Origin: a virus
DNA length: 57,430 nt
Strand: one strand, 5' to 3'
IMG/VR virus record: IMGVR_UViG_3300045988_128708
Shown: positions 1 to 57,430 of the stretch, piece by piece
How the letters are laid out: every line of letters begins with the position of its first letter
How positions within the stretch are numbered: position 1 is the stretch's first letter
Made by a program: the position numbers and the translations under genes
Notes under the pieces: model-generated
What the model was told of the DNA's origin: nothing
The model's database searches: none
What the model saw: the letters and a program-made list of their open reading frames with translations, nothing else

Positions 1-2167
1 GCTGCAAATTTAACACTTTTCGAAAAATCCATGCACCGGAAATTCTGCTTGAGCCGAAACTACCGCTCAATCTGTTTTTCAGAAAAGCGTAGTCGACGCC
101 GATGTCGAACTGGTGTGATTTCTCCCAAGTGATGTCAGGGTTTGCAAGCTGAGTCTGTGCCACGCCAGGAGAGAACTCTTTGTCAAACCAGTATCCGTAT
201 CCTGTTGAGCTTCCGATAGATGCCGAATAAGGGTAGTAGCTGCTTATCGCCTGATTGCCCAACAGACCGTATGATGCTCTCAGCTTGAAGTTGTCCATGA
301 CGTTTTTGGCTGATTCCCAGAATGCCTCCTCCGAGATTCTCCATCCGGCAGAAACAGAAGGGAAGAAACCCCATCGGTTGTTGCCGATGAATCGCGACGT
401 TCCGTCGTAGCGTCCGTTGACCTCAAACAGGTATCTGTCGTCGAAAGAATAGTTTACTCTGAACAGGTATGAGAGCATCGCCCATGCGTGGCGTGCGCTT
501 GAGTTTGTCATTGTCGCGGCATCGCCGTTATTGAGGTCTTGGTAGCCGTCGTAATAATAATTCTTTCGTCCGGCAATCAGGTATGAGTAGTTGAGCTCTT
601 CCGACTGGAAGCCCATCAGGAGTTTAAGATAGTTCTTGCCGAAAGTGTTTTCGTATGTTCCAATCAGGTCGTATTGCTTGCGCACTTGCTTTGTGCGTTG
701 GTCCGACATCGATGATCCTGTTGTCGGGAACGAGCCTTTGAAAGCTCCGTTCTCGTATGTGTCGTAAGGCTTTACGAATGCGTTTGTCTCGCCATCGTTG
801 CGCTTCCAGGTGTATGCTCCGTAGATTGAAAGACCTTTCAGCGGAGTGATTGTCAGCGATGTCTTGATGATATATTCAGGAGCAGTGCTGTTTGATGTGC
901 ATCCTGTTCTGACCATTGCTATAGGGTTTGTGCCGTTGATGCCGTATCCGTATGTTCCATCGGCGTTGATTCCCGACATAATAGGTGTCATTGTCAACGC
1001 TTTGCCGATGATATTGGCAGGGGAGTCCATAACGGGCGATGTGGCATTGGCTTGGCGCACGCTGGCGTCGATTCCCAATTTCACCCATTTGTTGATTTTC
1101 ATGTCTGAGTTTAAGCGCAATGATGTGCGTGAGAACTTGTTGTTGTCAATCAAACCGTCTTGTGAGTAGTATCCGGCAGAGGCGAAAACTTTAATGAATT
1201 CGCTGCCGCCGCTCACGCCCACGGAGTAGTTTTGCACAATAGCCGAGCTCTTTATCACTTCGTTGCGCCAGTCGGTGTCGTAATAGTTGATTTGGTCAAC
1301 GCCACCATTTTTGTAAATATCTATTACGTTTGTGTAAAGGGGTTGTTGCAAGGCGTTTTGACGGGCAATGTCGACAGCCTGCATATATTCGATGGCAGTT
1401 GCCGGCTCTGGCAGGGTGGTGGGAGTGTTCATTCCTACGTAGCCGTTGAAAGTAACTGTCGGTTTGCCTTCGTAGCCGCGTTTTGTAGTAATCAGGATTA
1501 CACCGTTTGACGCGCGCGAACCGTAGATTGATGCAGAGGCGGCGTCTTTAAGAACTGATATCGTCTCGATGCTGTTGAGGTCTATTCGGTTGAAGTCGCC
1601 CTCCACGCCGTCGATAAGAATGAGCGGTGATGTGGATGAGTTGAGCGATCCCAGTCCTCTGAGTTTCAGAGAGGCCTGGTCGTTGCCAGGCTGTCCGGAG
1701 CTCTGCACTGCTGTAAGTCCCGGCACGATGCCCTGGAGGGCAGAAGAGCCGTTGGAGACGTTGGCTCTGAGGATGTCCTTGCTGTTGATGCTCTGTACGG
1801 CACCGGTAAGGTTTATTTTCTTCTGTGTGCCGTATCCCACAACGACCACATCGTCAAGGGCAGTTGCCGTCTGACGCATGACAATATCCTTTTGTGTTGC
1901 CTTCTTTGCATCGATTGTTATCGTCTCAGAACCTACAAACGTGAATTTCAATTTGGTCGGAGAGTTCAATTCAATTGAATATCTGCCGTCTGCGTCTGTA
2001 ACGCCGAGCGTGTTGCCGTCCTTGTTTGTGACGGCGACTCCGATCATCGGCTCTCCGCTTTCATCAACGACTCTGCCTTGCACTGTGAATGCTTGGGCAA
2101 GCGCCGTTTGCGACATAGCGAGAAATGCAAGAATCATGGAGGCGTTTAAAAATCTTTTCAGCTTCAT
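1..2167 (-). CDS. SusC/RagA-family TonB-dependent outer-membrane receptor, N-terminal ~722 codons (3' end runs off the window)
   Basis: Reverse translation from the ATG at 2167: MKLKRFLNASMILAFLAMSQTALAQAFTVQGRVVDESGEPMIGVAVTNKDG... This gives a signal peptide and a carboxypeptidase-regulatory-like domain, then a plug region (DDVVVVGYGTQKK; IETISVLKDAASASIYGSRASNGVILITTKRG). It is absent from the ORF track because there is no stop inside the window. Confidence 0.9.
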   Translation of the reverse strand, partial: MKLKRFLNASMILAFLAMSQTALAQAFTVQGRVVDESGEPMIGVAVTNKDGNTLGVTDADGRYSIELNSPTKLKFTFVGSETITIDAKKATQKDIVMRQTATALDDVVVVGYGTQKKINLTGAVQSINSKDILRANVSNGSSALQGIVPGLTAVQSSGQPGNDQASLKLRGLGSLNSSTSPLILIDGVEGDFNRIDLNSIETISVLKDAASASIYGSRASNGVILITTKRGYEGKPTVTFNGYVGMNTPTTLPEPATAIEYMQAVDIARQNALQQPLYTNVIDIYKNGGVDQINYYDTDWRNEVIKSSAIVQNYSVGVSGGSEFIKVFASAGYYSQDGLIDNNKFSRTSLRLNSDMKINKWVKLGIDASVRQANATSPVMDSPANIIGKALTMTPIMSGINADGTYGYGINGTNPIAMVRTGCTSNSTAPEYIIKTSLTITPLKGLSIYGAYTWKRNDGETNAFVKPYDTYENGAFKGSFPTTGSSMSDQRTKQVRKQYDLIGTYENTFGKNYLKLLMGFQSEELNYSYLIAGRKNYYYDGYQDLNNGDAATMTNSSARHAWAMLSYLFRVNYSFDDRYLFEVNGRYDGTSRFIGNNRWGFFPSVSAGWRISEEAFWESAKNVMDNFKLRASYGLLGNQAISSYYPYSASIGSSTGYGYWFDKEFSPGVAQTQLANPDITWEKSHQFDIGVDYAFLKNRLSGSFGSSRISGAWIFRKVLNLQ

Positions 2168-2326
2168 TATTCGTTTTTTTATCTTGGTTTGTTTATGTTT
2201 TATTCAGTATTCTCATATGGGGCACAGAACGAAGCGTATATGAGTCGGTCGGCTGAAAAATGGGTGAGGGGTTTGTGTTTCAACGAGTTAGGCGTGTGTG
2301 GTTGAAATGACGGCGTAAAACGAAGC

Positions 2327-3213: not shown

Positions 3214-3654
3214 TTACCCTGCACTTGCAATATTTGAAGTGTCGGCATCCGATACATGCTTTTCTTTTTCGATAGACAGTTGCTTTATGGTTTCTTTGAG
3301 ACGTCCTATTTCCTCTGCTTGTTGTATGATTTTAGCATCTTTGCTTTGTATGTATGGTTCTAATTGACCAAAGAATGTGGCAATGCTTGTCTCTGTCGTT
3401 GCAAGAATAGGGTTTCCTGGCTCAGAATTAGGTAAGGTGTCACTCCCTAAGCCAGTGAGAAGCCACATTGCGTTTACATCGTAAGAAATCACGATTTTTT
3501 CTAAGACGTCAGCTTTGGGTATGACTCCCTTTATATAACCTCTTATATTAGCTTCACTAACGCCTAATTTCTGGGCGAATACTGTATTCTTTCCACCTGC
3601 TTTAATATCAACGAGGTGCTTGATTCTTTCGTGAATTGTCCCGTTATGTGCCAT
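3214..3654 (-). CDS. Phage repressor, XRE-type HTH with C-terminal coiled coil (Mu c-like position)
   Basis: 146 aa. HTH: NTVFAQKLGVSEANIRGYIKG. C-terminal part: IQQAEEIGRLKETIKQLSIEKEK. Divergent from the early operon. Confidence 0.75.
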   Translation of the reverse strand: MAHNGTIHERIKHLVDIKAGGKNTVFAQKLGVSEANIRGYIKGVIPKADVLEKIVISYDVNAMWLLTGLGSDTLPNSEPGNPILATTETSIATFFGQLEPYIQSKDAKIIQQAEEIGRLKETIKQLSIEKEKHVSDADTSNIASAG

Positions 3655-11677: not shown

Positions 11678-12517
11678 TTAGGCGGCATCGGTGAACAACA
11701 TCATGTCTGTGTAGTGCGAGCTGTAGTTTACTGTGGCGTTGAACTCCACCTTGTGGCAGTTCTTGAATGGGTTGCCCACGGTCGGGTTCTTGCCCATCCA
11801 TTCACAAAGCTCAATAATGGATGACTTGTTGGAAGTGAAATATATAAAGTGATGTCCGGCAAGAATGGTCAGCACATCGAGGTAGTCGGAAAGTTTCCAG
11901 TACATATTATATGTGCCAACGTCGGTGGATAGATAGGGCGGATCAACAAGGTACACAACATTCGGCATGTCTTTGTATCGGGCGAACACCTCTTTGTAGT
12001 CGCATGATACTACTGTGATACCTTCAAGATAGTCCTCACAAGTAGGATAGTCTGACTTGCGGAGATTGTTGTATAGAGCCTCCTTCTTCATTTCGGGGAT
12101 GCTCAATTTGTATTTCATGGAGAACATCAGTCCGGAAGAAATGGTGATGAAGTCAATGTACCCGACCTCTCGTTCCTCTTGCTCCAAACGAGCGAATATG
12201 CGGTCGCGCAGTTCACCACGGATGCAGCTGTGCTTGGGTATGCCTTCCGTTTCCACCATTTTGCGCAGGTCAGCCAAAAGGTGGTTGGTCTGCGGGATGT
12301 GCTGTAGGCGGTTGCGGTAGCCGTCGAAGTCGTTGTATATGACTGTGGCATTTGGCTTCTGGCACTTGGTGATGTGCGACAGCAGACCCGAACCGCCGAA
12401 CAAATCCACGAATACCGTGTCCTCTGGATATTGTTTTAGAACCTTGATAAACTCACGCGCGAACATGCGCTTCTGCCCCACGAAAGGGAGCGGTGCCGAT
12501 AAATATTGTCTTCTCAT
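11678..12517 (-). CDS. D12-class (Dam-like) N6-adenine DNA methyltransferase family protein
   Basis: 279 aa. SAM motif DLFGGSG, catalytic DPPY (LVDPPYLSTD). Confidence 0.75.
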   Translation of the reverse strand: MRRQYLSAPLPFVGQKRMFAREFIKVLKQYPEDTVFVDLFGGSGLLSHITKCQKPNATVIYNDFDGYRNRLQHIPQTNHLLADLRKMVETEGIPKHSCIRGELRDRIFARLEQEEREVGYIDFITISSGLMFSMKYKLSIPEMKKEALYNNLRKSDYPTCEDYLEGITVVSCDYKEVFARYKDMPNVVYLVDPPYLSTDVGTYNMYWKLSDYLDVLTILAGHHFIYFTSNKSSIIELCEWMGKNPTVGNPFKNCHKVEFNATVNYSSHYTDMMLFTDAA

Positions 12518-12520
12518 GTC

Positions 12521-13159
12521 TTATACGTTTAGTTCAAATTTCACGTTCTCGTTTCCGTTGAGCAACTGTCGTGTGTGTTCGATGTTGTTCTCGTAGATAT
12601 GCACATTCGCAAGGTTCAGCGTGATGGACTTCAAAGGGAGGTCAATCTGCCGGGTCATGAGGTAGAGGTGGTAGATGTCGGCCGGCAAGCCGAGGTTCGC
12701 GTCCGAGCTGCGCTGGTAAGCCGACACCACTAATTCGTCGTTCTCAATCTGGAACTGAACGAGTGACAGACACGGTGCCTGGTTTGTCTCCGCATCGGTG
12801 GAGCCGAGGAACAGCACATAGTTCTTGCTGTTGCGCTTCTCTCGGTTGATTTTGGCGATGAGTGGCGGCAGCTTCTCAAAGTAGGTAGGGTAGGAGTTTA
12901 CGAGAATGGCACCGCAGTAGTCCCACCAGTTGATGCCCACCTCGCGATACTTCTCCACATTGCGTTCACCTTGCATGAAGAGCTGCAGCTCGTTCTTTAA
13001 CTTCTTTCGTGCGAGGCCGTGCCCCTCGAATATGTCGAGCAGGTCAGCAGGGGAAAGCACCAACGGCTCGTTGAGCAGGTAACGTATGCTTCCCTTCTTG
13101 TTAGTCTGGCACTTGCCCAGAGTAAGTACCTTCTGTAAAATTTGATGGTATTTGTTCAT
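12521..13159 (-). CDS. Compact thymidylate synthase-family enzyme (ThyA or dNMP hydroxymethylase-like)
   Basis: 212 aa. Catalytic-Cys context QAPCLSLVQFQ and YQRSSDANLGLPADI align with ThyA ALAPCH and YQRSCDVFLGLPFNI. Confidence 0.7.
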   Translation of the reverse strand: MNKYHQILQKVLTLGKCQTNKKGSIRYLLNEPLVLSPADLLDIFEGHGLARKKLKNELQLFMQGERNVEKYREVGINWWDYCGAILVNSYPTYFEKLPPLIAKINREKRNSKNYVLFLGSTDAETNQAPCLSLVQFQIENDELVVSAYQRSSDANLGLPADIYHLYLMTRQIDLPLKSITLNLANVHIYENNIEHTRQLLNGNENVKFELNV

Positions 13160-13230
13160 AACCGTTTTGAATTTGAAAACGGTGCAAAGGTAACAACGCG
13201 TGTCCCCTCGACAATGACCATACGCAAATG

Positions 13231-13473: not shown

Positions 13474-13500
13474 TCTCAGAAAAATTTAGTACTTTTGCAC

Positions 13501-18937: not shown

Positions 18938-18941
18938 AGCG

Positions 18942-43930: not shown

Positions 43931-43957
43931 GTGCAAAAGTACTAAATTTTTCTGAGA

Positions 43958-44200: not shown

Positions 44201-44271
44201 CATTTGCGTATGGTCATTGTCGAGGGGACACGCGTTGTTACCTTTGCACCGTTTTCAAATTCAAAACGGTT

Positions 44272-44910: not shown

Positions 44911-44913
44911 GAC

Positions 44914-45753
44914 ATGAGAAGACAATATTTATCGGCACCGCTCCCTTTCGTGGGGCAGAAGCGCATGTTCGCGCGTGAGTTTATCAAGGTTCTAAAACAA
45001 TATCCAGAGGACACGGTATTCGTGGATTTGTTCGGCGGTTCGGGTCTGCTGTCGCACATCACCAAGTGCCAGAAGCCAAATGCCACAGTCATATACAACG
45101 ACTTCGACGGCTACCGCAACCGCCTACAGCACATCCCGCAGACCAACCACCTTTTGGCTGACCTGCGCAAAATGGTGGAAACGGAAGGCATACCCAAGCA
45201 CAGCTGCATCCGTGGTGAACTGCGCGACCGCATATTCGCTCGTTTGGAGCAAGAGGAACGAGAGGTCGGGTACATTGACTTCATCACCATTTCTTCCGGA
45301 CTGATGTTCTCCATGAAATACAAATTGAGCATCCCCGAAATGAAGAAGGAGGCTCTATACAACAATCTCCGCAAGTCAGACTATCCTACTTGTGAGGACT
45401 ATCTTGAAGGTATCACAGTAGTATCATGCGACTACAAAGAGGTGTTCGCCCGATACAAAGACATGCCGAATGTTGTGTACCTTGTTGATCCGCCCTATCT
45501 ATCCACCGACGTTGGCACATATAATATGTACTGGAAACTTTCCGACTACCTCGATGTGCTGACCATTCTTGCCGGACATCACTTTATATATTTCACTTCC
45601 AACAAGTCATCCATTATTGAGCTTTGTGAATGGATGGGCAAGAACCCGACCGTGGGCAACCCATTCAAGAACTGCCACAAGGTGGAGTTCAACGCCACAG
45701 TAAACTACAGCTCGCACTACACAGACATGATGTTGTTCACCGATGCCGCCTAA
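44914..45753 (+). CDS. Dam-like D12 methyltransferase family protein (mirror of 11678..12517)
   Basis: Exact copy. Confidence 0.75.
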   Translation: MRRQYLSAPLPFVGQKRMFAREFIKVLKQYPEDTVFVDLFGGSGLLSHITKCQKPNATVIYNDFDGYRNRLQHIPQTNHLLADLRKMVETEGIPKHSCIRGELRDRIFARLEQEEREVGYIDFITISSGLMFSMKYKLSIPEMKKEALYNNLRKSDYPTCEDYLEGITVVSCDYKEVFARYKDMPNVVYLVDPPYLSTDVGTYNMYWKLSDYLDVLTILAGHHFIYFTSNKSSIIELCEWMGKNPTVGNPFKNCHKVEFNATVNYSSHYTDMMLFTDAA

Positions 45754-45838
45754 CGGCGTTATAATTCAATTCTAACGGCATTAAAAAGCCCCGGCGGTAA
45801 ATTATCCGTCGGGGCTAAATCGTTGCGACATGGGCGGT

Positions 45839-46240
45839 TTATCGCAATAGGTAACGCACCGCATAACAGTCGATGCTTTCAAGTATCTCTTCGTGGTTGT
45901 GGTTGGTGTTCGTCTCAACAAGCGCCATGCCGTTAAAATCATCACCACTCAATCCGTCAAGGGCTGTATGCACCTGGTGGCAAAGGTCGAAAGCTGCATC
46001 ATGGCCACCGTCAGCCCAGTCTGTCACAAGGTGAATAGTAACAAGTCCCTTGCCACGCTGACTGCCACCTTGAAATGGTGACCACTCTATCTTTCCAAAC
46101 TCCACAAAGACGGCTGGACGCGCCCATCCTTCTTCCTGCTCTACAAACTCCACATTGTGGTTCCACAAATCAATGTGCTGCACTTCAGGCACATCGCTCG
46201 CCAGTTTTGCTTTAATGGCGTTGAATAATTCCTTTCTCAT
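45839..46240 (-). CDS. Putative head-tail connector protein (mirror of 11191..11592)
   Basis: Exact copy. Confidence 0.4.
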   Translation of the reverse strand: MRKELFNAIKAKLASDVPEVQHIDLWNHNVEFVEQEEGWARPAVFVEFGKIEWSPFQGGSQRGKGLVTIHLVTDWADGGHDAAFDLCHQVHTALDGLSGDDFNGMALVETNTNHNHEEILESIDCYAVRYLLR

Positions 46241-46794
46241 TTCAATTTATATTCGTGTTCAAAATACTCTGCAAGGTTCTCCTCGATGATGTCCTTGACC
46301 GCTTGCTCCACTTCTGGCGATGCTCCAAGAAATCTGCGGCGCGGTATCTTGATGCTCTTTCCTTCTTTCATCAGAGCCATGTGCTTCCAGAACTCCGCCT
46401 CGGTGCTCAGTTGTACGGTGCGCTTGTCGTTGCGTCTCTCACCATTCTTCTTGCGTCCGAATGAGCCTGTCGCCTCATGGTACTTGTACCAGAAGAATCG
46501 CTTCATCCTCGCCGTCACCTTTATCTCACCTCCATCGTTGTGTATGGCTGCATAAGGCAGTGTCGAGCAGAACGTGATACTGCTCTCTGTGGTTCGGCTG
46601 CTGATGCTCTGCCGCAACTTGCCGGTGTCTATCAGTATGGAACCGCCAGGACGTGTGGGGCTGCTTCTGCGCTGCCATGCCTCGTTGAAGAATGCCTGCC
46701 GTTCAAAGTTGCGGTCAAACTCATCACTCAACTCCACCCTAACGTCGTTTAGGATATTGCGGATAATTTTCTGTATGTCCTGGTTCATCGTCAA
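46237..46794 (-). CDS. Virion morphogenesis protein (mirror of 10637..11194)
   Basis: Exact copy. Confidence 0.55.
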   Translation of the reverse strand: MTMNQDIQKIIRNILNDVRVELSDEFDRNFERQAFFNEAWQRRSSPTRPGGSILIDTGKLRQSISSRTTESSITFCSTLPYAAIHNDGGEIKVTARMKRFFWYKYHEATGSFGRKKNGERRNDKRTVQLSTEAEFWKHMALMKEGKSIKIPRRRFLGASPEVEQAVKDIIEENLAEYFEHEYKLK

Positions 46795-47017
46795 AGTCGA
46801 ATTTTAGAAACGTCTGTGCCTCTTGTGGCACTTCGTTCTTAGGGTCACAAGAGGCATTAAGGAGGTTGTAGAAGGTACGCTCACATATACCATAAACAGG
46901 ATACACGTACCTTCGCCATATCTCGCGGTTGCTGATTCCGCTTTTGGCATGTTGGTCGTATATCCTATTTATGTCTGTGACACGTTTCTGATAGCTTGCT
47001 CCTCGCCTCTTGCTCAT
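46739..47017 (-). CDS. Putative DNA-binding protein (mirror of 10414..10692)
   Basis: Exact copy. Confidence 0.45.
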   Translation of the reverse strand: MSKRRGASYQKRVTDINRIYDQHAKSGISNREIWRRYVYPVYGICERTFYNLLNASCDPKNEVPQEAQTFLKFDFDDEPGHTENYPQYPKRR

Positions 47018-47025
47018 AAAATGTT

Positions 47026-47214
47026 TTAGTGTCTGTCTCTTGGTTTATAGGGACGGATGTCATAGCTCATCTTTGCGCTGACGGTTACTCTGCCCGTTCC
47101 CTCACATTGGTCACATGTGCTTTCTTTGCCAGTCTCCTTGTCGTGGAGACGACCTGTGCCGTAACATTTACGGCACAAGGCCACTTTCGGTTTCTTCTCT
47201 ACTTCCAGTATCAT
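47026..47214 (-). CDS. DnaJ-type zinc-finger protein (mirror of 10217..10405)
   Basis: Exact copy. Confidence 0.55.
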   Translation of the reverse strand: MILEVEKKPKVALCRKCYGTGRLHDKETGKESTCDQCEGTGRVTVSAKMSYDIRPYKPRDRH

Positions 47215-47226
47215 GTCTCTTCGCTT

Positions 47227-47895
47227 TTAGGATTCTGTCATTCCGAGCGGTATTGACTTCCACATTCCGTTCTCGTTCTTTATCTCAGCCCTGATGAACT
47301 GCTTGCTCACCTCCGGCTGGTAGCTTTCCTCGATGATGCGCACGCCTTCAAGGAAACGCTCATCGCCGGTGTCCTGCGCCACCTTGCGGAGTTGCACGAT
47401 GCGGCTTGCCTTCAGCGTGCCCTTGGCATCGCGTGCCAGCAGACGAAACACCATGTTCACTAACGCCTGTGTCTTGTCGTCATTGGCAAGGCCGGCGATG
47501 TACTCCTTCACGATGGCGATGCCGTCCTCTACGGTGTCACGGTAGCCGTCGGTCACATACACACCGAGCGTAATGCGCTTGTTGCCCTCGGAGTTGGTGA
47601 ACGTGTGGCTGCGCTGGTCGTCCTTGACCTTGGTCTTGAACAGGTCAGACTTCATCTCCAGTATGGTCTTGAAGTTGTCCATCACCTTTTGCTTGCTGTC
47701 CTTGATTTGCTCGCTGATGCCGAGAAGCACGGGGATGGAATGCTCTATTTCCTCGTCCACGAGCTGTTTGTACTCTTCACGCTCGGCCTTGGCTTTCGCC
47801 TCTGCCTCTTTCTTGGCTTTCGCCTTTTGGAATGCCCGGTACTCGGCCATCTCCTCCGCCGTCATTTCAACGGTCTGCTTGTTGTCTTCTTTCAT
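47227..47895 (-). CDS. DUF3164-like protein (mirror of 9536..10204)
   Basis: Exact copy. Confidence 0.5.
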   Translation of the reverse strand: MKEDNKQTVEMTAEEMAEYRAFQKAKAKKEAEAKAKAEREEYKQLVDEEIEHSIPVLLGISEQIKDSKQKVMDNFKTILEMKSDLFKTKVKDDQRSHTFTNSEGNKRITLGVYVTDGYRDTVEDGIAIVKEYIAGLANDDKTQALVNMVFRLLARDAKGTLKASRIVQLRKVAQDTGDERFLEGVRIIEESYQPEVSKQFIRAEIKNENGMWKSIPLGMTES

Positions 47896-47934
47896 TGTAG
47901 TAAACTTTTTGTTGATTATTATTTTGATTGCTTA

Positions 47935-48093
47935 TCACTCGTCTTCTTCTGGTTCCGGCCAGTCACCTTCTTCCAGTTCCTTGTCTATCTCGTATTCAAT
48001 ACACTCAAGAAATTCGATGTACTGGTCACCTTGGAGTTCTCTGTATGCGATGCCGTGAATGTATTCCATCACACGCTTCACTTTCTCATTCAT
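47935..48093 (-). CDS. Small acidic protein, 52 aa (mirror of 9338..9496)
   Basis: Exact copy. Confidence 0.45.
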   Translation of the reverse strand: MNEKVKRVMEYIHGIAYRELQGDQYIEFLECIEYEIDKELEEGDWPEPEEDE

Positions 48094-48587
48094 GCCTCAC
48101 CTCCATTTCCAATTGGTACCATCATGTATTCCACTTGTGGCTGTGCTGGAGGTGTCGGTTCTTTCTTAGGTTTCAGACCTCCCTTGCGCTGGATGGAGCG
48201 GAGCTTCACCGACAGCTGCTCCAATTCCTCATTACTTAGTTGAGAGAACACCTTGCCGGCAATACGCTGATCCTGGCAAAATGCGTTGATGCGTGTCCAG
48301 TCTGTTGTATCGATGCCGAGCTTCTGCATCAACCTCAAGCACTGGCTTCGATGCTTGCGCTGTACGTCCTTGGCGGTGCGTATCAATTTGGCTGTAACAC
48401 CTTCGAGCTTGTCGCACATCAAGTCGTACTCCTTACGGGTCATTTCCCTAAGCGAAGTGGTACGTCCATTGGTGAATTGACTCACCACTCCTTCCTTGAA
48501 CTCATCGCCCAGCTCCTTGGTGGCAAACTTGTAGCTCTTTTTGAGTATGCCATAGAAGCGTGCGAAATTGGTTACTTCCTGTGCCAT
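48090..48587 (-). CDS. Hypothetical / GemA-like protein (mirror of 8844..9341)
   Basis: Exact copy. Confidence 0.4.
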   Translation of the reverse strand: MAQEVTNFARFYGILKKSYKFATKELGDEFKEGVVSQFTNGRTTSLREMTRKEYDLMCDKLEGVTAKLIRTAKDVQRKHRSQCLRLMQKLGIDTTDWTRINAFCQDQRIAGKVFSQLSNEELEQLSVKLRSIQRKGGLKPKKEPTPPAQPQVEYMMVPIGNGGEA

Positions 48588-48589
48588 AT

Positions 48590-49042
48590 CTATTTCAATT
48601 TTGACAACCTTATTCTTTCACTTAACACCTTCAAATTACATTCAGGACAACACTCCCCCTCATCTTTCAATGGATGAGGATTGTTTCCATAGCCGATTTG
48701 GGGCTTACCGCAAAGGCAGCAGGTGTATTCACGAACATTGTTCTCATGACCTTCAAACATCACTTTAATGCCACACGAACTGGCAACATCCAGTTCCAGT
48801 TTTGCTCCCTTGCTCAATTCCCAGCCTTGCAGCATATAGATGCAATCACACTTCAAAAGCTGGGCAATGTCCACTCTCATGTGCTCCATCCAGTGAGCAT
48901 CCTGCGAAACGCCATTTTCAAATGGGTTCACCGGCTCGTAACCTTTTATGGAGAGATAGCGTGCCGCATGGTCAAAGGTTGCCATACGCTCTTTAAGGTC
49001 GTAGTGGGCTATCGCTCCGCTGATATAAACTTTCTTCTTCAT
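48590..49042 (-). CDS. DUF4406-like plus zinc ribbon protein (mirror of 8389..8841)
   Basis: Exact copy. Confidence 0.5.
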   Translation of the reverse strand: MKKKVYISGAIAHYDLKERMATFDHAARYLSIKGYEPVNPFENGVSQDAHWMEHMRVDIAQLLKCDCIYMLQGWELSKGAKLELDVASSCGIKVMFEGHENNVREYTCCLCGKPQIGYGNNPHPLKDEGECCPECNLKVLSERIRLSKLK

Positions 49043-49053
49043 CTCAGTTATGT

Positions 49054-49695
49054 TTAGTTGTTAGACTTGTCATTGTAAACCTCCACGGCTTTCTCCGCCC
49101 AGATGGTGTAGTATTCACTTACGTTGCCTGAATAGCGTCCTTGACAGTATGCACGGAAGCCTTGCGTTCTCACCTTCACGCCGGCAGCGTATTTCAGTCT
49201 GATGGCAGGTTTGCCGATGGGTTTGCCTTTATCCTCTTGGCTGACGAAAATGAAGGTCTTGCGCTTGAAGCGGTCTATCAGTGCCCTGGTCAGCGAATAT
49301 TCCCACCCTGCTTCGTATGCGTACTGGTAACTGTCCACAATGATAAACTTGGCACTCTTGGGCTTCGCCAGACGTTCTTCCAATGCCTTGATGTCGCCAT
49401 CGGTAATGAGGCGGAACGAGCCTTGAACGTCAGTCATCTTGAATTGGGCAAGCCGTCGTTGCATCGACAGACCAACGCCCTCTTCCAAGGACACATACAA
49501 CACGCTGCCTATACCGCAGAGCATCTTGGCAAACTGCATAACGAAGGAACTCTTACCACTGGCACTGGGACCACTGATGAACCATGTGTCGCCCTCTTCT
49601 GGCTGACCGAACACGTCTTTCCATTGTCCTTCAAATGGTAGTGCCTTGCACTTGATATTAGCCACATCCTTGGGACTATATGCTCGCTTTGCCAT
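49054..49695 (-). CDS. P-loop NTPase (mirror of 7736..8377)
   Basis: Exact copy. Confidence 0.6.
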   Translation of the reverse strand: MAKRAYSPKDVANIKCKALPFEGQWKDVFGQPEEGDTWFISGPSASGKSSFVMQFAKMLCGIGSVLYVSLEEGVGLSMQRRLAQFKMTDVQGSFRLITDGDIKALEERLAKPKSAKFIIVDSYQYAYEAGWEYSLTRALIDRFKRKTFIFVSQEDKGKPIGKPAIRLKYAAGVKVRTQGFRAYCQGRYSGNVSEYYTIWAEKAVEVYNDKSNN

Positions 49696-49696
49696 A

Positions 49697-49930
49697 TCAC
49701 TTCTCTGTTTCGATAAGTTCTGATACAACAGCGTCCGCTATCTTGACTGCATATTTGGCAATGAGTTCGGCTGTCATTTCTTCACGATCATGGTGAAGGA
49801 CTGGAGCCACAAACAATGCAGCCTTGGCCAATTCATAGCGACGTTGCTCCCAGTCCACCTCGTTATTTCGTTGTCGGCGGTTTATTTGTATAACCGCGTC
49901 CATATATTGCATTTCCATCTTTGTCATCAT
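49697..49930 (-). CDS. Hypothetical early protein (mirror of 7501..7734)
   Basis: Exact copy. Confidence 0.5.
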   Translation of the reverse strand: MMTKMEMQYMDAVIQINRRQRNNEVDWEQRRYELAKAALFVAPVLHHDREEMTAELIAKYAVKIADAVVSELIETEK

Positions 49931-50805
49931 GCCTGCACTCTTTTTAGTTTTTCTATTTCCGTGTAAACTCGTCTCAGTCCACCACCCGACTTGCGCACCA
50001 GAGTAGCAATATCCGCACCTTCTGGGGCGTTCACCTTTGCCACCACGCTCGCCTGGTCTTTCAGGAACTTCTCACGCTCCTTGCAGTCGTCGGGCGTTAC
50101 CTTCGAGTAGCGGTCACCATATCGACTGAGCATCTCGGTATAGCCCACTTTCTTGCACTCAATGGAGCGATTGATTTTGGCTTTCAGCCCGTCCGCACCC
50201 ATCATATACCAGGCACAGCATCTTTCTGTAGCGTTCCACAAGGCTTTGAGTTCCAGAAATGCCTCATACTGCAAGTCGCCAGCCTCGTCCAAAATGATGA
50301 GTGGTGTGTCGATTGAGCGCAAGTAATAAACCAAATCCTCGTACACGTCGCTGTATCTTCCGTTGCTGCCCACACCGAACTCAGTGGCTATCTTGCGCAC
50401 CAGCTTCAGTTTGGTCTTCACTTGGGAGCAATCTACATAGATGGCATTGCGGTGGCACTGCACATAATAGCGTGCCGTGAATGTCTTGCCGATGTTGGGT
50501 ATATCACATAGTATCGCACTCAGTCCGCTCTGTTGGCTGAACTCCAGCTGCTTGGTGATATATTCGAAGGTGGCGGTGCGTGCTGGCTTCCATTCAATGC
50601 CTCCTCTGAGGTTCACACCCAGTCTTCGGGCGATGGTTATCCAGTTGGCTTCGCTCAGTGCCTTGTCGGTCTGTCCATTCTTGATGGCGCTATATACCGA
50701 GGTGCTGATGCCCAATGAAGCAGCGTGCTTGGCATCGCTCGGATAGTTCGTGCGGTTGGTGGCTATAGCCTCCAATATCCGCTTCTTGTTCTCATTCGTT
50801 ATCAT
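49927..50805 (-). CDS. Mu B-like AAA+ ATPase (mirror of 6626..7504)
   Basis: Exact copy. Confidence 0.7.
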   Translation of the reverse strand: MITNENKKRILEAIATNRTNYPSDAKHAASLGISTSVYSAIKNGQTDKALSEANWITIARRLGVNLRGGIEWKPARTATFEYITKQLEFSQQSGLSAILCDIPNIGKTFTARYYVQCHRNAIYVDCSQVKTKLKLVRKIATEFGVGSNGRYSDVYEDLVYYLRSIDTPLIILDEAGDLQYEAFLELKALWNATERCCAWYMMGADGLKAKINRSIECKKVGYTEMLSRYGDRYSKVTPDDCKEREKFLKDQASVVAKVNAPEGADIATLVRKSGGGLRRVYTEIEKLKRVQA

Positions 50806-50840
50806 GTCTCACGTTATTTTAATTGTATTCTAATATCATT

Positions 50841-52847
50841 CTATAAATCTGCCAACGGGTCAGAAATATGGTAGCTCACTTCCATTTCCTGCTCGCTTTC
50901 CATCGGTGGAAGTTCAATCGGTGGCGGTGGTGCAGCCTCTTCATGGGCGGTCTGCTCAGCCTTGGATATGCCCACACTTGCTATGGCGTTCTTCTTCACG
51001 TATGCGTTGAATGCTGCTATCTTCTTCTGCTGGTTCACGAATATCTCCTTGTCCTTGTCAGTCTGCTCTGCATCGGCAGTGTTGAACGTGCCCACGTCCT
51101 CGAGCTTGTCGATAAGTCGGTCGTTCTGGAAGATGTACACATCGGTCGCGTTGCCGTCCTCATCGGTCAGATAGTAGGCATCAACCTTGTAGTTGTTCGG
51201 TGCAAGTTTTTCTATCACCTCGGTTTTGCTCAACCACCAGTCCTTATATGCCACTCTGCAGTAGCTGTTCCTGCGTATGGAGGTCTCAGTGTGCTCGCCG
51301 ATAAAGCGTGCCCACACCGATTTGTCCATTGGCTGAAGTGTTGGGTTCATATTGGCTTCAAGCACTTGCCAGCGTGTCATGCCGGGGTATTTCTTCTGAT
51401 TCGGGTGGAGGGTATTGTTGAACTCCTTGATGTCGCGGATGTCATCAGCAATCAGTTCTTCCCATGTGTAGTACTGTTTGTCCTCGTAGGTGTCATTCTT
51501 CTCGTCAAACACCTTCTTGGCCTCCGTGCGGTAGTGTCTATCCTTGGCGTAGAAGCGTCCGATGCCGAGGTGGTTCCGATGCTCCACACGGCGTTTCTTG
51601 GCACCGTTCATCGGCTCAGCGTATTTCTCTTGGGAGTTCATCGGGGCGCAGAAACGCACAAATGGGAACAATACTCCTGCCTTCAGGAAACTCTCTTTCC
51701 ACTGACTCATCAAGTGGTTCTCCACCTCAACCTGCGCCGGGCAACCCCAGCCCTTGCTTTCTATCAGTCGGAACATCGAACGGAAGCAGTCGGCAACCAA
51801 GTCCACGTTCTTGTTGCGGTTGTAGGCGTAGCCCACCACGCACTGGCTTGTGACATCGTAGGCGTAGTATGCCTTCGGCCTTGCCTTGGTATCCTTCAGT
51901 TTGCGTGGGAGGTCGCGGTCATCGAATGAAATCTTTGAGAACGAGAACTCAGGCGCATGGCGGTGAACGTGTGGCATCTGCTCGTGCATGAATGTGGTGT
52001 AAGAATCTTGGTGTTTTGCTATAAACAGACGAGCATCTGGACGATTCAGGTAGTTCGTGATAGTGCTTTCGCTCAATGACTTCGGGTCACCGTTCTTGTC
52101 GGTCCACTCGCTTGCGTCGAAAAGCTCACCGGTCTCTGGGTCATACACGTCCAGCTCACCGCACACAAACGAGTTGTACAATTCCCAAACATTGGTATTG
52201 AACGGCTTGTTGGGTAGCACCGCTATTGACCATATCAAGCGCATTGTTCGGTAATCTACCTTACGGCTTGCCTGGTTGCCGAACTTTCGGCTGATGAGAC
52301 ACTGGTATCCGTCACGCTGGTACTCGTTCACCTTCTTGCGGAAGCGCAACATACTTGCAGGCAATGTGTGCCCTGTCTTCATACGGTAGCCCTCCACAGC
52401 TTGCGACATCATGCTCCAGTCATACTTCTGGCCCATTGTCTTCTGTATCGCCTTGGCGTTGTTGTAGAGCTTAATACAAGCATTCAGCACGCTGGCGTTG
52501 GTCACATACTCCTTCACATGAGCATCGGTAGCGTGGTCGTGTCCGCACTGGTTGCGCCAGTCGTTGAAATAAGCGACAGCTGCCTGGTCCACCTCGTAGT
52601 TGGCATCAAGCCAGGCAAGCAGCACCTCAAGCGACGGGTCCGGATAAAGCTCCTTGAGTTTGTCTTGATAAGCATCGGGCAGACTGCATACGGCAATAAG
52701 CGCGTAGTTCTTGGAAGAGCCTCCACCACGACGCACTACATCAATGCGACCGCGTGCGGAGAGCTGCTTGTAGTTTGATACGGTCATCACACCGCCATCC
52801 ACAAGTTCCCGCATCGAGATGCAAAGTCTGTTATCGTGGTACTCCAT
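50841..52847 (-). CDS. Mu A-like transposase (mirror of 4584..6590)
   Basis: Exact copy. Confidence 0.7.
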   Translation of the reverse strand: MEYHDNRLCISMRELVDGGVMTVSNYKQLSARGRIDVVRRGGGSSKNYALIAVCSLPDAYQDKLKELYPDPSLEVLLAWLDANYEVDQAAVAYFNDWRNQCGHDHATDAHVKEYVTNASVLNACIKLYNNAKAIQKTMGQKYDWSMMSQAVEGYRMKTGHTLPASMLRFRKKVNEYQRDGYQCLISRKFGNQASRKVDYRTMRLIWSIAVLPNKPFNTNVWELYNSFVCGELDVYDPETGELFDASEWTDKNGDPKSLSESTITNYLNRPDARLFIAKHQDSYTTFMHEQMPHVHRHAPEFSFSKISFDDRDLPRKLKDTKARPKAYYAYDVTSQCVVGYAYNRNKNVDLVADCFRSMFRLIESKGWGCPAQVEVENHLMSQWKESFLKAGVLFPFVRFCAPMNSQEKYAEPMNGAKKRRVEHRNHLGIGRFYAKDRHYRTEAKKVFDEKNDTYEDKQYYTWEELIADDIRDIKEFNNTLHPNQKKYPGMTRWQVLEANMNPTLQPMDKSVWARFIGEHTETSIRRNSYCRVAYKDWWLSKTEVIEKLAPNNYKVDAYYLTDEDGNATDVYIFQNDRLIDKLEDVGTFNTADAEQTDKDKEIFVNQQKKIAAFNAYVKKNAIASVGISKAEQTAHEEAAPPPPIELPPMESEQEMEVSYHISDPLADL

Positions 52848-52859
52848 ACTTACTCCTCC

Positions 52860-53222
52860 TTATCTCAATGTTGCAGCCCAGTTCTGAATGCCTTTAAGGT
52901 CTCTTACAAACACGTTTTCATAGTGCTTGACACTTTCACCTTTGAAAATCACATCCACATCACCATTGCTCTTGTTTACCTCCAGCAAAACACCATTCGG
53001 GAAATACTGGCGCATATAGTTGTCATGGTCATGGAACGTTTCCACTGCTGGCAACTCGTTCATCAATATACCAAAGTTCTCAAAGGCAGCCTTGCGTATC
53101 TTGTTGGCAAGGACACTCTCACTCTCAAAAGTCAAAGCCTTCCATACCATTACAGCGGAAACACTGAAGATTTTCATCAGGTGCTCACGAACCTCTTTTG
53201 TTACATGAATGTACTTTTTCAT
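52860..53222 (-). CDS. Hypothetical early protein (mirror of 4209..4571)
   Basis: Exact copy. Confidence 0.55.
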   Translation of the reverse strand: MKKYIHVTKEVREHLMKIFSVSAVMVWKALTFESESVLANKIRKAAFENFGILMNELPAVETFHDHDNYMRQYFPNGVLLEVNKSNGDVDVIFKGESVKHYENVFVRDLKGIQNWAATLR

Positions 53223-53250
53223 ATCTCACTTGTTTTTACGTTATACTTAT

Positions 53251-53411
53251 TGTGGAGTGTGGGGAGTCGAACCCCATGGCTGTCCTACGCTCTTCGCTTT
53301 CGCTTATTCCAACATTCCGGCCACTGCAACCGTGCCACCCCTGCGGTCTTTCCCGCCGTCATCCGAGGCTGGCCCTGCCGACTATCCAGTACATCACCCT
53401 GGGCTTCCGTG
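53251..53411 (-). ncRNA. tRNA/tmRNA-3'-like element (mirror of 4020..4180)
   Basis: Exact copy. Confidence 0.35.
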
Positions 53412-53422
53412 TTATCCTGCAA

Positions 53423-53668
53423 TCATTTTACCTCGTTTATCTTTGGTCTTACGCTACATCCGTAGCAGGACATCAGCCGTCTTATCAATCTCGCCACATA
53501 ACATTCTGGTGCTGTAAATACGATGCCGTCCTCTTCTGTATAGCTGAAACTAACACCATCCATTATCAGAACCATTGCCACCTTGTGCTTCACGCTCTGC
53601 GTCTGCCACTCCTTTAATTCGTTGTCGTTCATATTCTTTAATTGCAAAAATTCGTTATTCTCGGTCAT
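53423..53668 (-). CDS. Hypothetical early protein (mirror of 3763..4008)
   Basis: Exact copy. Confidence 0.5.
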   Translation of the reverse strand: MTENNEFLQLKNMNDNELKEWQTQSVKHKVAMVLIMDGVSFSYTEEDGIVFTAPECYVARLIRRLMSCYGCSVRPKINEVK

Positions 53669-53776
53669 TTTTCGTACCTTTGACCGCGCGTTAAATAATT
53701 AACACGCTGCAAAGATAGTGGTTTCTCACGAATTACAAAAGAAAAATCGGGATTTATTTCGATTAAATTTAGAATT

Positions 53777-54217
53777 ATGGCACATAACGGGACAATTCAC
53801 GAAAGAATCAAGCACCTCGTTGATATTAAAGCAGGTGGAAAGAATACAGTATTCGCCCAGAAATTAGGCGTTAGTGAAGCTAATATAAGAGGTTATATAA
53901 AGGGAGTCATACCCAAAGCTGACGTCTTAGAAAAAATCGTGATTTCTTACGATGTAAACGCAATGTGGCTTCTCACTGGCTTAGGGAGTGACACCTTACC
54001 TAATTCTGAGCCAGGAAACCCTATTCTTGCAACGACAGAGACAAGCATTGCCACATTCTTTGGTCAATTAGAACCATACATACAAAGCAAAGATGCTAAA
54101 ATCATACAACAAGCAGAGGAAATAGGACGTCTCAAAGAAACCATAAAGCAACTGTCTATCGAAAAAGAAAAGCATGTATCGGATGCCGACACTTCAAATA
54201 TTGCAAGTGCAGGGTAA
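53777..54217 (+). CDS. XRE-type phage repressor (mirror of 3214..3654)
   Basis: Exact copy. Confidence 0.75.
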   Translation: MAHNGTIHERIKHLVDIKAGGKNTVFAQKLGVSEANIRGYIKGVIPKADVLEKIVISYDVNAMWLLTGLGSDTLPNSEPGNPILATTETSIATFFGQLEPYIQSKDAKIIQQAEEIGRLKETIKQLSIEKEKHVSDADTSNIASAG

Positions 54218-54469
54218 ACCCATTTCATGTTATCATAGGTGGCAAGCCGTAACACCAAACGTATGCCCCTCCACCCCATTATAACCCCGTTTGGAGGGGT
54301 GTACCCCCTCTTTCGAGGCTCATTCCATGTAAGAAGCCTCATAAATACAAGGTTTTAGCCCGATTCGCACCCATTTTACCAATATCACAAATAGGTAGTT
54401 TCCCCCACCCTATCCCTTAAAACTATCCTTTTCCCTCCCCCTCTATCCTACCCCCAAAAACCCCGAATG

Positions 54470-54526
54470 TGTAACCCCACTTTTCAGAAAATGTAACCCC
54501 ACTTTGTAACCCCAGCTGTAACCCCA
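54470..54526 (-). repeat. Four TGGGGTTACA repeats (mirror of 2905..2961)
   Basis: Exact copy, read as tgtaacccca on the plus strand. Confidence 0.6.
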
Positions 54527-54637
54527 CTCACTATTTTCGCCATTTTCGGACATAAAAAAAGGAGGCCAAACGACCTCCTTTCCCACGACCGTACAAACGG
54601 CCTTTTATTTGCGTTCTAACGCCATAAAAACACCAGC

Positions 54638-54877
54638 CTAATCATCTGCCCCACGAGAGCATGAAATAAGCGTAGATTGCTTGATTATAGCGCGTTTCGT
54701 GCATAATGTACCATTGCCAGACAACCCGGCATGAAGCAAATAATTCTTCGTTGCGCCGATCTGTTCAGCCGTCAAAACCGTATAAACCGCGGAAATGCTG
54801 CTAAAGTACCAGTCTTTCCGCCTCGTTCCATCTATATTGTGCAGCAGATGCACATGTATTACCTTTGCCATATTCAC
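54638..54877 (-). CDS. Hypothetical 79-aa protein (mirror of 2554..2793)
   Basis: Exact copy. Confidence 0.45.
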   Translation of the reverse strand: MNMAKVIHVHLLHNIDGTRRKDWYFSSISAVYTVLTAEQIGATKNYLLHAGLSGNGTLCTKRAIIKQSTLISCSRGADD

Positions 54878-55023
54878 TCGTTTTGTTTCTGCAAATATAC
54901 CAAATAATCATTATATGGAATAATTTCGCAATATAAAATTTCAGAAACACCATAAAAAAAAGTGGCCTCAGCCACCATTCTACCCCACCCCACCCCAACA
55001 CCAACCACCAACAGAAACGCAAT

Positions 55024-55104
55024 ATAAACCGCCCGTAAGCCCCATGTAAACCACAGGAGCCTCAACAAGCCCCAAAAGTAAACCAAATGTAAGCCTATGT
55101 AAAC
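55024..55104 (-). repeat. GTTTACA-type heptamer cluster (mirror of 2327..2407)
   Basis: Exact copy. Confidence 0.4.
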
Positions 55105-55263
55105 GCTTCGTTTTACGCCGTCATTTCAACCACACACGCCTAACTCGTTGAAACACAAACCCCTCACCCATTTTTCAGCCGACCGACTCATATACGCTTC
55201 GTTCTGTGCCCCATATGAGAATACTGAATAAAACATAAACAAACCAAGATAAAAAAACGAATA

Positions 55264-57430
55264 ATGAAGCTGAAAAGATTTTTAAACGCCTCCATGATTC
55301 TTGCATTTCTCGCTATGTCGCAAACGGCGCTTGCCCAAGCATTCACAGTGCAAGGCAGAGTCGTTGATGAAAGCGGAGAGCCGATGATCGGAGTCGCCGT
55401 CACAAACAAGGACGGCAACACGCTCGGCGTTACAGACGCAGACGGCAGATATTCAATTGAATTGAACTCTCCGACCAAATTGAAATTCACGTTTGTAGGT
55501 TCTGAGACGATAACAATCGATGCAAAGAAGGCAACACAAAAGGATATTGTCATGCGTCAGACGGCAACTGCCCTTGACGATGTGGTCGTTGTGGGATACG
55601 GCACACAGAAGAAAATAAACCTTACCGGTGCCGTACAGAGCATCAACAGCAAGGACATCCTCAGAGCCAACGTCTCCAACGGCTCTTCTGCCCTCCAGGG
55701 CATCGTGCCGGGACTTACAGCAGTGCAGAGCTCCGGACAGCCTGGCAACGACCAGGCCTCTCTGAAACTCAGAGGACTGGGATCGCTCAACTCATCCACA
55801 TCACCGCTCATTCTTATCGACGGCGTGGAGGGCGACTTCAACCGAATAGACCTCAACAGCATCGAGACGATATCAGTTCTTAAAGACGCCGCCTCTGCAT
55901 CAATCTACGGTTCGCGCGCGTCAAACGGTGTAATCCTGATTACTACAAAACGCGGCTACGAAGGCAAACCGACAGTTACTTTCAACGGCTACGTAGGAAT
56001 GAACACTCCCACCACCCTGCCAGAGCCGGCAACTGCCATCGAATATATGCAGGCTGTCGACATTGCCCGTCAAAACGCCTTGCAACAACCCCTTTACACA
56101 AACGTAATAGATATTTACAAAAATGGTGGCGTTGACCAAATCAACTATTACGACACCGACTGGCGCAACGAAGTGATAAAGAGCTCGGCTATTGTGCAAA
56201 ACTACTCCGTGGGCGTGAGCGGCGGCAGCGAATTCATTAAAGTTTTCGCCTCTGCCGGATACTACTCACAAGACGGTTTGATTGACAACAACAAGTTCTC
56301 ACGCACATCATTGCGCTTAAACTCAGACATGAAAATCAACAAATGGGTGAAATTGGGAATCGACGCCAGCGTGCGCCAAGCCAATGCCACATCGCCCGTT
56401 ATGGACTCCCCTGCCAATATCATCGGCAAAGCGTTGACAATGACACCTATTATGTCGGGAATCAACGCCGATGGAACATACGGATACGGCATCAACGGCA
56501 CAAACCCTATAGCAATGGTCAGAACAGGATGCACATCAAACAGCACTGCTCCTGAATATATCATCAAGACATCGCTGACAATCACTCCGCTGAAAGGTCT
56601 TTCAATCTACGGAGCATACACCTGGAAGCGCAACGATGGCGAGACAAACGCATTCGTAAAGCCTTACGACACATACGAGAACGGAGCTTTCAAAGGCTCG
56701 TTCCCGACAACAGGATCATCGATGTCGGACCAACGCACAAAGCAAGTGCGCAAGCAATACGACCTGATTGGAACATACGAAAACACTTTCGGCAAGAACT
56801 ATCTTAAACTCCTGATGGGCTTCCAGTCGGAAGAGCTCAACTACTCATACCTGATTGCCGGACGAAAGAATTATTATTACGACGGCTACCAAGACCTCAA
56901 TAACGGCGATGCCGCGACAATGACAAACTCAAGCGCACGCCACGCATGGGCGATGCTCTCATACCTGTTCAGAGTAAACTATTCTTTCGACGACAGATAC
57001 CTGTTTGAGGTCAACGGACGCTACGACGGAACGTCGCGATTCATCGGCAACAACCGATGGGGTTTCTTCCCTTCTGTTTCTGCCGGATGGAGAATCTCGG
57101 AGGAGGCATTCTGGGAATCAGCCAAAAACGTCATGGACAACTTCAAGCTGAGAGCATCATACGGTCTGTTGGGCAATCAGGCGATAAGCAGCTACTACCC
57201 TTATTCGGCATCTATCGGAAGCTCAACAGGATACGGATACTGGTTTGACAAAGAGTTCTCTCCTGGCGTGGCACAGACTCAGCTTGCAAACCCTGACATC
57301 ACTTGGGAGAAATCACACCAGTTCGACATCGGCGTCGACTACGCTTTTCTGAAAAACAGATTGAGCGGTAGTTTCGGCTCAAGCAGAATTTCCGGTGCAT
57401 GGATTTTTCGAAAAGTGTTAAATTTGCAGC
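55264..57430 (+). CDS. SusC/RagA-family TonB-dependent receptor, N-terminal part (mirror of 1..2167)
   Basis: ATG at 55264. Open to the window end. Confidence 0.9.
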   Translation, partial: MKLKRFLNASMILAFLAMSQTALAQAFTVQGRVVDESGEPMIGVAVTNKDGNTLGVTDADGRYSIELNSPTKLKFTFVGSETITIDAKKATQKDIVMRQTATALDDVVVVGYGTQKKINLTGAVQSINSKDILRANVSNGSSALQGIVPGLTAVQSSGQPGNDQASLKLRGLGSLNSSTSPLILIDGVEGDFNRIDLNSIETISVLKDAASASIYGSRASNGVILITTKRGYEGKPTVTFNGYVGMNTPTTLPEPATAIEYMQAVDIARQNALQQPLYTNVIDIYKNGGVDQINYYDTDWRNEVIKSSAIVQNYSVGVSGGSEFIKVFASAGYYSQDGLIDNNKFSRTSLRLNSDMKINKWVKLGIDASVRQANATSPVMDSPANIIGKALTMTPIMSGINADGTYGYGINGTNPIAMVRTGCTSNSTAPEYIIKTSLTITPLKGLSIYGAYTWKRNDGETNAFVKPYDTYENGAFKGSFPTTGSSMSDQRTKQVRKQYDLIGTYENTFGKNYLKLLMGFQSEELNYSYLIAGRKNYYYDGYQDLNNGDAATMTNSSARHAWAMLSYLFRVNYSFDDRYLFEVNGRYDGTSRFIGNNRWGFFPSVSAGWRISEEAFWESAKNVMDNFKLRASYGLLGNQAISSYYPYSASIGSSTGYGYWFDKEFSPGVAQTQLANPDITWEKSHQFDIGVDYAFLKNRLSGSFGSSRISGAWIFRKVLNLQ

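Follow-up and report, generated by a model that had tools for sequence, protein, structure and literature searches.

Hankyphage, a 42.8-kb Mu-like phage of Bacteroides, carries a diversity-generating retroelement (DGR) that diversifies the C-terminus of a large fibre (PMC6199706; PMC12135933). In hankyphage proper the DGR reverse transcriptase (RT) directly follows the fibre at the right end of the genome, where the variable repeat (VR) and template repeat (TR) stand as adjacent direct repeats (PMC12135933). Here we describe a relative contained in IMG/VR record IMGVR_UViG_3300045988_128708, a stretch of 57,430 nucleotides that we refer to as the window. The element is a single-copy, Mu-like (hankyphage-like) gut prophage lying 48 nt upstream of a susC gene, and the two ends of the window are inverted copies of one another. 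We find that this quasi-palindrome is almost certainly an error of assembly and not a biological feature: the window is very probably a fold-back chimera, with a right arm that does not exist in the phage and without the phage's true right end.

The window has much in common with the hankyphages of Phocaeicola dorei (p00) and B. thetaiotaomicron. All are Mu-like transposable siphoviruses of gut Bacteroidales that insert at random, with a repressor, MuA and MuB, a Mu-type portal, MuF and gp36, a VR in the C-terminus of a fibre of roughly 2,200 aa, DUF4376, ThyA-like and Dam genes after the RT, and the small gene p77 beside the TR. The window differs in that its DGR cassette, together with the TerS-MuF block, is inverted and placed between the early and head genes, leaving TR and VR inverted and 26 kb apart, and its RT has only ~75% protein identity to the RTs of Phocaeicola and Bacteroides isolates. 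No hankyphage record was matched when the window was compared by megablast with a phage collection that did not hold p00 among its records. The DGR of BPP-1 likewise shows adenine-specific transfer from TR to VR, a VR at the 3' end of a receptor-binding protein gene, an RT with SQ upstream of YxDD and a structured RNA between TR and RT; the window departs from it in having no recognised Avd homologue, a remote target on the opposite strand and an adenine-depleted TR. Remote or opposite-strand DGR targets have been described in Pseudogulbenkiania NH8B (PMC3521204), and prophage targets within 50 kb (PMC5758913). Because non-adjacent, opposite-strand targets are already known, the window represents a variant arrangement and not a new kind of system.

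The geometry of the window is exact. Bases 1-15779 are the reverse complement of 41652-57430, and on recounting we found 0 mismatches over 15,779 nt, with the in-register identity collapsing at the next base (15780 a, 41651 c), just as a preliminary description of this DNA had stated. That description also put the DGR repeat at the inner ends of the arms and made it ~120 bp long; the repeat is 113 nt, lies within the arms as their innermost 113 bp (15667-15779, minus strand, and 41652-41764, plus strand), and the last 8 nt formerly counted with it (41765-41772, AAATCTAA) belong to the TR flank. Between 14000 and 43500 there is no repeat of 40 nt or more other than this one. Both arms terminate at the same host base. 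The features on which the argument turns are as follows.

14158..15462, minus strand: DGR reverse transcriptase, 434 aa (Pfam RVT_1; phrog_1423)
15504..15656, minus strand: RT-3 RNA motif between TR and RT (Rfam RF03068, full length, 142.8 bits, E 2e-36)
15667..15779, minus strand: template repeat in its authentic context, 113 nt, adenine-depleted (11 A against 26 in the canonical TR)
15839..16072, minus strand: p77, a small hydrophobic open reading frame (ORF) beside the TR in most relatives (phrog_38535)
15780..41651, plus strand: unique core, authentic (Pfam, PHROGs; 100% identical to L006, L012, L013, L014, L015 and L016)
35002..41651, plus strand: authentic part of the tail-fibre ORF, the DGR target, aa 1-2216 (99.97-100% identical to L013, L014 and L015)
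41652..41772, plus strand: putative chimeric join, a TR-type repeat copy (41652-41764) and then TR flank, yielding an apparently false fibre end (GSRLEI and a stop codon)
41652..57430, plus strand: right arm, very probably a spurious reverse-complement re-use of 1-15779, absent from five identical-strain assemblies

The fibre ORF as it stands in the window (2256 aa, 35002-41772) stops 121 nt inside the right arm, and the mirror image of those 121 nt sits between p77 and the RT. The repeat copies had been read as occupying the VR and TR positions of a DGR. This holds for the positions, but the copy at the VR position carries TR-type sequence followed by TR flank.

To decide which of the two junctions is authentic, we compared each with independent assemblies. 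On the left, p77, TR and RT were adjacent in every one of the 10 contigs that encode the identical p77 protein, drawn from ENA, Logan and JGI and made by different assemblers, and in all 40 IMG/VR contigs with TR-upstream context; the VR flank followed the TR-side context in 0 of those 40. The same adjacency occurs in isolate genomes, for example those of Hoylesella shahii DSM 15611 and Mediterranea massiliensis. At the level of assembled sequence, the left junction is shown to be authentic. The left arm had earlier been preferred on the grounds of Mu synteny, and this choice was right for another reason: hankyphage proper has its RT beside the fibre, which would favour the right arm, and the left arm is supported because relatives show a lineage-specific architecture, not by canonical synteny. 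BT-TP2 (PQ571279.1) illustrates the point, as its homologous 2,262-aa fibre is followed by VR, TR, RT and DUF4376, with VR and TR as direct repeats 285 nt apart start to start and 90% identical, a synteny that superficially resembles the spurious right arm. It differs in being integrase-type and not transposable, and its ~72% nucleotide identity to the window is found within the fibre only. A reading modelled on this synteny, in which the right arm is authentic and the left junction chimeric, is ruled out by the independent assemblies.

For the right junction we turned to five further assemblies with 100.00% identity to the window, and the fibre-repeat-RT join was absent from all five. The ENA contig k119_41155 has the same SusC/SusD flank on its left, with 99.994% identity over window positions 52-16200, and is the same lysogen in the form of an ordinary single insertion. 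Its fibre is 2276 aa long and runs 20 codons beyond the repeat, continuing CCTTTCGCGGCAAACTCG... and ending AFRGKLVRAQSVAAYKALSEAA before the stop codon; ~215 nt of phage right end follow, and then host ROK, DUF4434 and major facilitator superfamily (MFS) genes. Compared with it, the window is without ~278 nt, namely the 20 fibre codons and the ~215-nt right end. Ten contigs concur on the fibre tail and on the right terminus (...GCGGATTATA), each then passing into unrelated host DNA. By this comparison of contigs, the true right end is shown in the same lysogen elsewhere, and the right-end piece expected for the lysogen of the window would read ...GCGGATTATA and then CTCAGAGAGGAATGGC. A genuine inverted terminal repeat would have both junctions reproducible in the same strain; here the left is reproduced and the right is absent. 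The reading favoured in the preliminary description, with the left arm authentic and the right end missing, is borne out at both junctions.

Further contigs stop where the window goes on. The JGI contigs _000403 and _000303 (sample 3300056372) tile window positions 1-41684, one of them ending 33 nt into the repeat, which makes that sample the likely origin of the window; SPAdes NODE_507, from another sample, ends exactly 55 nt into it. In the window, the RT-3 RNA, an element of the TR transcript, comes after the repeat copy at the end of the fibre. Since this copy is TR sequence and then TR-flank RNA, the fibre C-terminus ending in RLEI would be chimeric. An exact look-up of the chimeric 2256-aa fibre protein found no record, and scans of JGI metagenomes found no match for the chimeric join and none for the orphan right-end piece.

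The cassette bears the marks of a DGR. The RT reads FGLRSSQ at aa 185-191, with SQ at aa 190-191 upstream of YCDD at aa 218, and this motif together with the family matches identifies it as DGR-type. The RT-3 motif, whose score compares with a gathering score of 40.5 and whose mirror copy lies at 41775-41927 on the plus strand, is presumed to be the spacer or priming part of the DGR RNA. It appears to serve as the DGR RNA spacer element of this phage group in the manner of RT-10, which is located between TR and RT in BPP-1 (PMC5737381). No Pfam match to an Avd-type accessory family was found among p77, p80 and the DUF4376 protein, and no Avd homologue was recognised; an accessory factor of a kind not recognised here is possible. 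p77, which adjoins the TR in both cassette architectures described below, had no Pfam match at all and looks like a small membrane protein.

Within the window both repeat copies are identical by construction, as they lie in the arms, and the adenine signature of a DGR is invisible because one sequence has been used twice. It can be seen in the identical strain: the TR of k119_41155 equals the window repeat, and its VR differs at 5 positions, all of them TR A to VR G, with 0 at other bases. In related contigs the TR/VR differences at adenine and non-adenine positions were 11/0, 9/1 and 8/2. The VR of k119_41155 spans roughly aa 2217-2254 of the fibre, so that the target is the 3' end of the fibre gene. 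It includes a GC-rich, putative segment resembling an initiation of mutagenic homing (IMH) site, after which the flanks diverge: both repeat copies end in GTCGGCTCGCGCCTGG, followed by CCTTTCGCGG in the VR flank or AAATCTAAC in the TR flank.

The TR of the window is itself altered. Among the 51 contigs examined there were 48 full-length TR copies, 38 of which carry what is here called the canonical TR of this phage group, with 26 adenines. The window TR differs from it at 16 positions, and 15 of these changes fall on canonical adenines, an enrichment for which we estimate a binomial chance of ~3e-9; the window TR is thus a VR-like sequence residing in the TR locus. The same sequence stands downstream of p77 in three assemblies, including L006 and L012, and the VR of k119_41155 bears every one of its substitutions plus five more at the remaining adenines, which together argue that the eroded TR is real and still templates the VR. 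A comparable TR in L216 (2144-2645, minus strand) has 8 such changes, all shared by its VR, which has 6 more, and the TRs of the P. coprocola DSM 17136 and P. plebeius DSM 17135 prophages carry three A-to-G changes common to their VRs. Eroded TRs were located at 15667-15779 of the window (equivalent to 41652-41764) and in L006, L012, L216, L241, L157 and L159 (~9037-9752). In several lineages, type-strain prophages included, template adenines have been lost in blocks that match the phage's own VR. It looks as if VR-type sequence overwrites the TR, by gene conversion or by mis-homing of cDNA, and the eroded TR then serves as template. Loss of template adenines has been predicted in theory (preprint 10.64898/2026.02.18.706561), and no documented case was found in the literature that we searched.

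A different pattern was noted in some contigs (L049/L211, L104/L215 and L075/L244), where the VR differs from the TR of its own contig at 19, 7 and 9 non-adenine positions. Here it looks as if the fibre module came by exchange from a lineage whose TR is different, with no rewriting since then.

These observations suggest how the window could have arisen. The real element very probably runs from host DNA through 2216...41651, the VR (113 nt) and ~278 nt (the 20 codons and the ~215-nt right end) into other host DNA. In this lineage the cassette p77-TR-RT-3 RNA-RT-DUF4376-...-Dam is inverted 26 kb upstream of the fibre. TR and VR therefore form 113-bp inverted repeats, and in the window strain, with its adenine-poor, VR-like TR, they differ at only 0-5 positions; TR/VR pairs from single contigs of relatives (n = 8) have 8-14 adenine differences, 8-11 in the cleanest of them. 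Short-read graphs cannot resolve an inverted repeat of 113 bp that is so nearly perfect. The assembler would have entered the repeat from the fibre side and left it on the TR side, and its path would then have gone back through RT, early genes and host flank until it reached the graph branch point from which it started. The right arm would be a second traversal of one graph path. Window bases 1-~54, the outermost, diverge from two other assemblies of the same lysogen, and for this reason the outer end of the arms would be a graph branch point, where the contig also starts. We infer that the step occurred in the assembler rather than in the cell and that the near-identity of TR and VR probably caused the failure here. 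In its perfect arms, its breakpoint at an internal repeat, its mirror-image ends and the loss of the sequence beyond, the window resembles other repeat-induced fold-back contigs from short reads, with no essential difference; its particular cause is a hypervariable locus whose template is nearly identical to its target.

A second contig, L119, has the same join. In it the sequence switches from VR-type to TR-type inside a 56-nt stretch common to the VR allele and the TR, which just suffices for k = 55. It contains a single copy of the RT flank, and a second, inverted copy was sought and not found in it, so that L119 is a mis-join or an isomer without duplication. More broadly, 27 of 80 IMG/VR loci extend no more than 150 nt beyond the start of the VR, which we read as contig ends, and protein matches to the fibre C-terminus were nearly all terminal fragments.

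Contigs in which a single repeat joins the fibre to the TR flank were also seen in other lineages (L070, L091, L150, L247 and L248); one of these or L119 is from an isolate genome. Such contigs could be assembly collapses where TR resembles VR, or real deletions between direct repeats; L119, with inverted repeats, and L070, L091 and L150, as probable collapsed direct repeats, would be sister cases of the window. In L149, a type-strain scaffold, there is a run of Ns in the VR, and the last ~22 nt of L106 (IMGVR_UViG_3300045988_063399), inside the VR, are the Nextera adapter CTGTCTCTTATACACATCT. In L073 the VR, in its correct context (VR flank, right end, host), matches the canonical TR at every base, which shows that VR alleles without mutations occur in nature; such alleles too would make the repeat unresolvable.

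Several points weigh against an origin in the assembler. The case against the join is built on assembled contigs. Typical reads are longer than the 113-nt repeat and ought to resolve it. In L247, L248 and L150, from other lineages, the repeat is VR-type almost to its last base, where the TR flank begins. No graph with k of at least 31 can fabricate this unless the TR of those strains is VR-like or the contigs are real recombinants. Finally, the eroded TRs show that the TR locus has in nature taken up VR-type sequence, and a physical interaction between TR and VR is not a far-fetched idea.

The join could also be the footprint of a real exchange of DNA between the inverted TR and VR, with the core inverted in a subpopulation. 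We consider this unlikely; if true, recombination at DGR repeats would reshape the genome of the phage and wear away the template itself. In its specific form, which we hold to be quite improbable, some phage genomes in the population have their 26-kb core inverted by homologous recombination between TR and VR, real molecules carry the fibre-repeat-RT junction, and the isomers were merged in assembly, the duplicated arm still being an artefact. In its favour, the two repeats of the strain differ at no more than 5 of 113 positions, and the TR locus bears VR-type substitutions in the window strain, in L216, in L241 and in L157/L159, thus in at least four lineages, which implies transfer of sequence from VR to TR. 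The recurrence of the join in L119 and the abutment of VR-type repeats on the TR flank in L247, L248 and L150 fit as well. However, such an inversion would create two recombinant junctions, from unique fibre sequence into AAATCTAACTAATCGG and from GGTAGAGTTTCCCAT...repeat into CCTTTCGCGG, and neither was present in the five identical-strain assemblies; the reciprocal one, from p77 through the repeat to the VR flank and right end, occurred in 0 of 50 contigs. The fibre would moreover lose 20 conserved residues of a nearly invariant tail, and the recipient repeat would be left non-coding.

An artefact of the library or of sequencing, either an inverted chimera from multiple displacement amplification (MDA) or a palindromic long read with a missing adapter that seeded the contig, is very unlikely. 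Fold-back artefacts of this kind yield perfect palindromes, as observed here. Their breakpoints are essentially random, yet the breakpoint of the window falls to the base at the only long inverted repeat of the genome, and the switch inside the repeat in L119 points to a repeat-mediated join.

Least probable of all, and hardly credible, is a true inverted duplication, in which a real molecule carries two inverted copies of the arm around the core, for example through template switching between TR and VR during replication: the contig itself speaks for it, but the same lysogen has different host DNA on its right elsewhere, the structure would have no phage right end for transposition and packaging, and the arms show zero differences over 15.8 kb with mirror-image ends at a graph branch. 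Intramolecular replicative transposition of the Mu type, which makes inverted prophage copies, was rejected, as its junctions would sit at the phage ends and not at the DGR repeat. A chimera of two co-resident phages of differing architecture is unnecessary, the right arm being the left arm base for base, host flank included.

We surveyed the arrangement of the cassette with tblastn in 80 genomes carrying a related RT (L128-L207) and found two architectures in the hankyphage group. In architecture I the cassette directly follows the fibre at the right end, and in the loci examined the starts of VR and TR, which here are direct repeats, lie ~330-600 nt from each other; examples are P. plebeius DSM 17135, P. 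coprocola DSM 17136, B. finegoldii JCM 13345 and Leyella stercorea. In architecture II, represented by the window lineage, Hoylesella shahii DSM 15611, Mediterranea massiliensis and a Muribaculaceae isolate, the cassette and the TerS-MuF block are inverted between early and head genes, 26 kb from the target. VR and TR lie on opposite strands in seven IMG/VR contigs and in k119_41155. The Dam, ThyA-like, p80 and DUF4376 block accompanies the RT in both architectures across the 80 genomes, and the rearrangement that separates them is not a single inversion. Near-identical fibres (96-97% at the nucleotide level) were seen in both.

The palindrome itself is of value only for the warning it gives, as a trap for completeness calls and for DGR annotation; the greater interest lies in template erosion and in the two cassette architectures. 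Pipelines that judge completeness by inverted terminal repeats would rate this 57-kb contig as a complete genome, and the caution already voiced on this point is valid. Naive annotation would count 20-odd genes twice, accept a false fibre C-terminus, find TR and VR "identical" and miss the right end. Since a large proportion of public assemblies are broken or collapsed at this locus, it is a source of bias in surveys of gut-phage DGRs that rely on short-read contigs.

The remaining features of the left arm are those of a Mu-like prophage and its host flank.

1..2215, minus strand: host flank with a SusC-like TonB-dependent receptor gene (ORF from 2167 to 2; Pfam CarboxypepD_reg, Plug, TonB beta-barrel)
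2216..2300, plus strand: phage left end (TATGGGGCACAGAACGAAGCG...), with AACGAAGCG-type repeats
3214..3654, minus strand: helix-turn-helix (HTH) repressor, RepC-like (Pfam HTH_3; PHROG transcriptional repressor)
4584-6590, plus strand: MuA-like transposase (phrog_310)
6626-7504, plus strand: MuB-like AAA+ transposition protein (phrog_296, DNA transposition protein; Pfam AAA_22)
11678..14161, minus strand: Dam-type methyltransferase, ThyA-like protein, 80-aa ORF (p80) and DUF4376 protein, companions of the DGR cassette (Pfam)

The host susC gene had been called truncated. [quoted passage not shown] The insertion probably separates the susC locus from its promoter. In L249, susD and further genes of the polysaccharide utilization locus (PUL) stand behind susC. 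Ten contigs with ten different host flanks all begin to match the window at 2215/2216, and with the ten different flanks on the right this is the insertion pattern of a Mu-like phage. In k119_41155 'CTCA' abuts both phage ends; the target duplication of hankyphage is reported as 5 bp (PMC6199706).

The gene content agrees, with a transposase A, an ATPase B and Mu-type head genes. Portal_Mu, Phage_Mu_F and AAA_22 were matched in the window and Phage_Mu_Gp36 in relatives; DUF3164 and the virion morphogenesis family were also matched in the window (Pfam). The exact repressor protein is indexed in 3248 blocks of a public collection. Further early genes follow the transposition ATPase on the plus strand. 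The minus-strand genes then stand in the order Dam, ThyA-like, p80, DUF4376, RT, TR, p77 and, within the core, MuF, Mu portal, adaptor, TerL and TerS, and the plus strand of the core encodes the protease, major head protein, amidase, tape measure, tail proteins and fibre. The VR domain, taken as the last 200 aa of the fibre, gave an AlphaFold2 model with a mean predicted local distance difference test (pLDDT) score of 39, and neither a profile search of PDB sequences nor Pfam produced a match for it; a hankyphage homologue of the fibre has been reported to have a C-type lectin domain (PMC6199706). Further upstream in the fibre, aa 1003-1289 (window 38008-38868) match the CotH kinase family of Pfam (E 1.9e-7).

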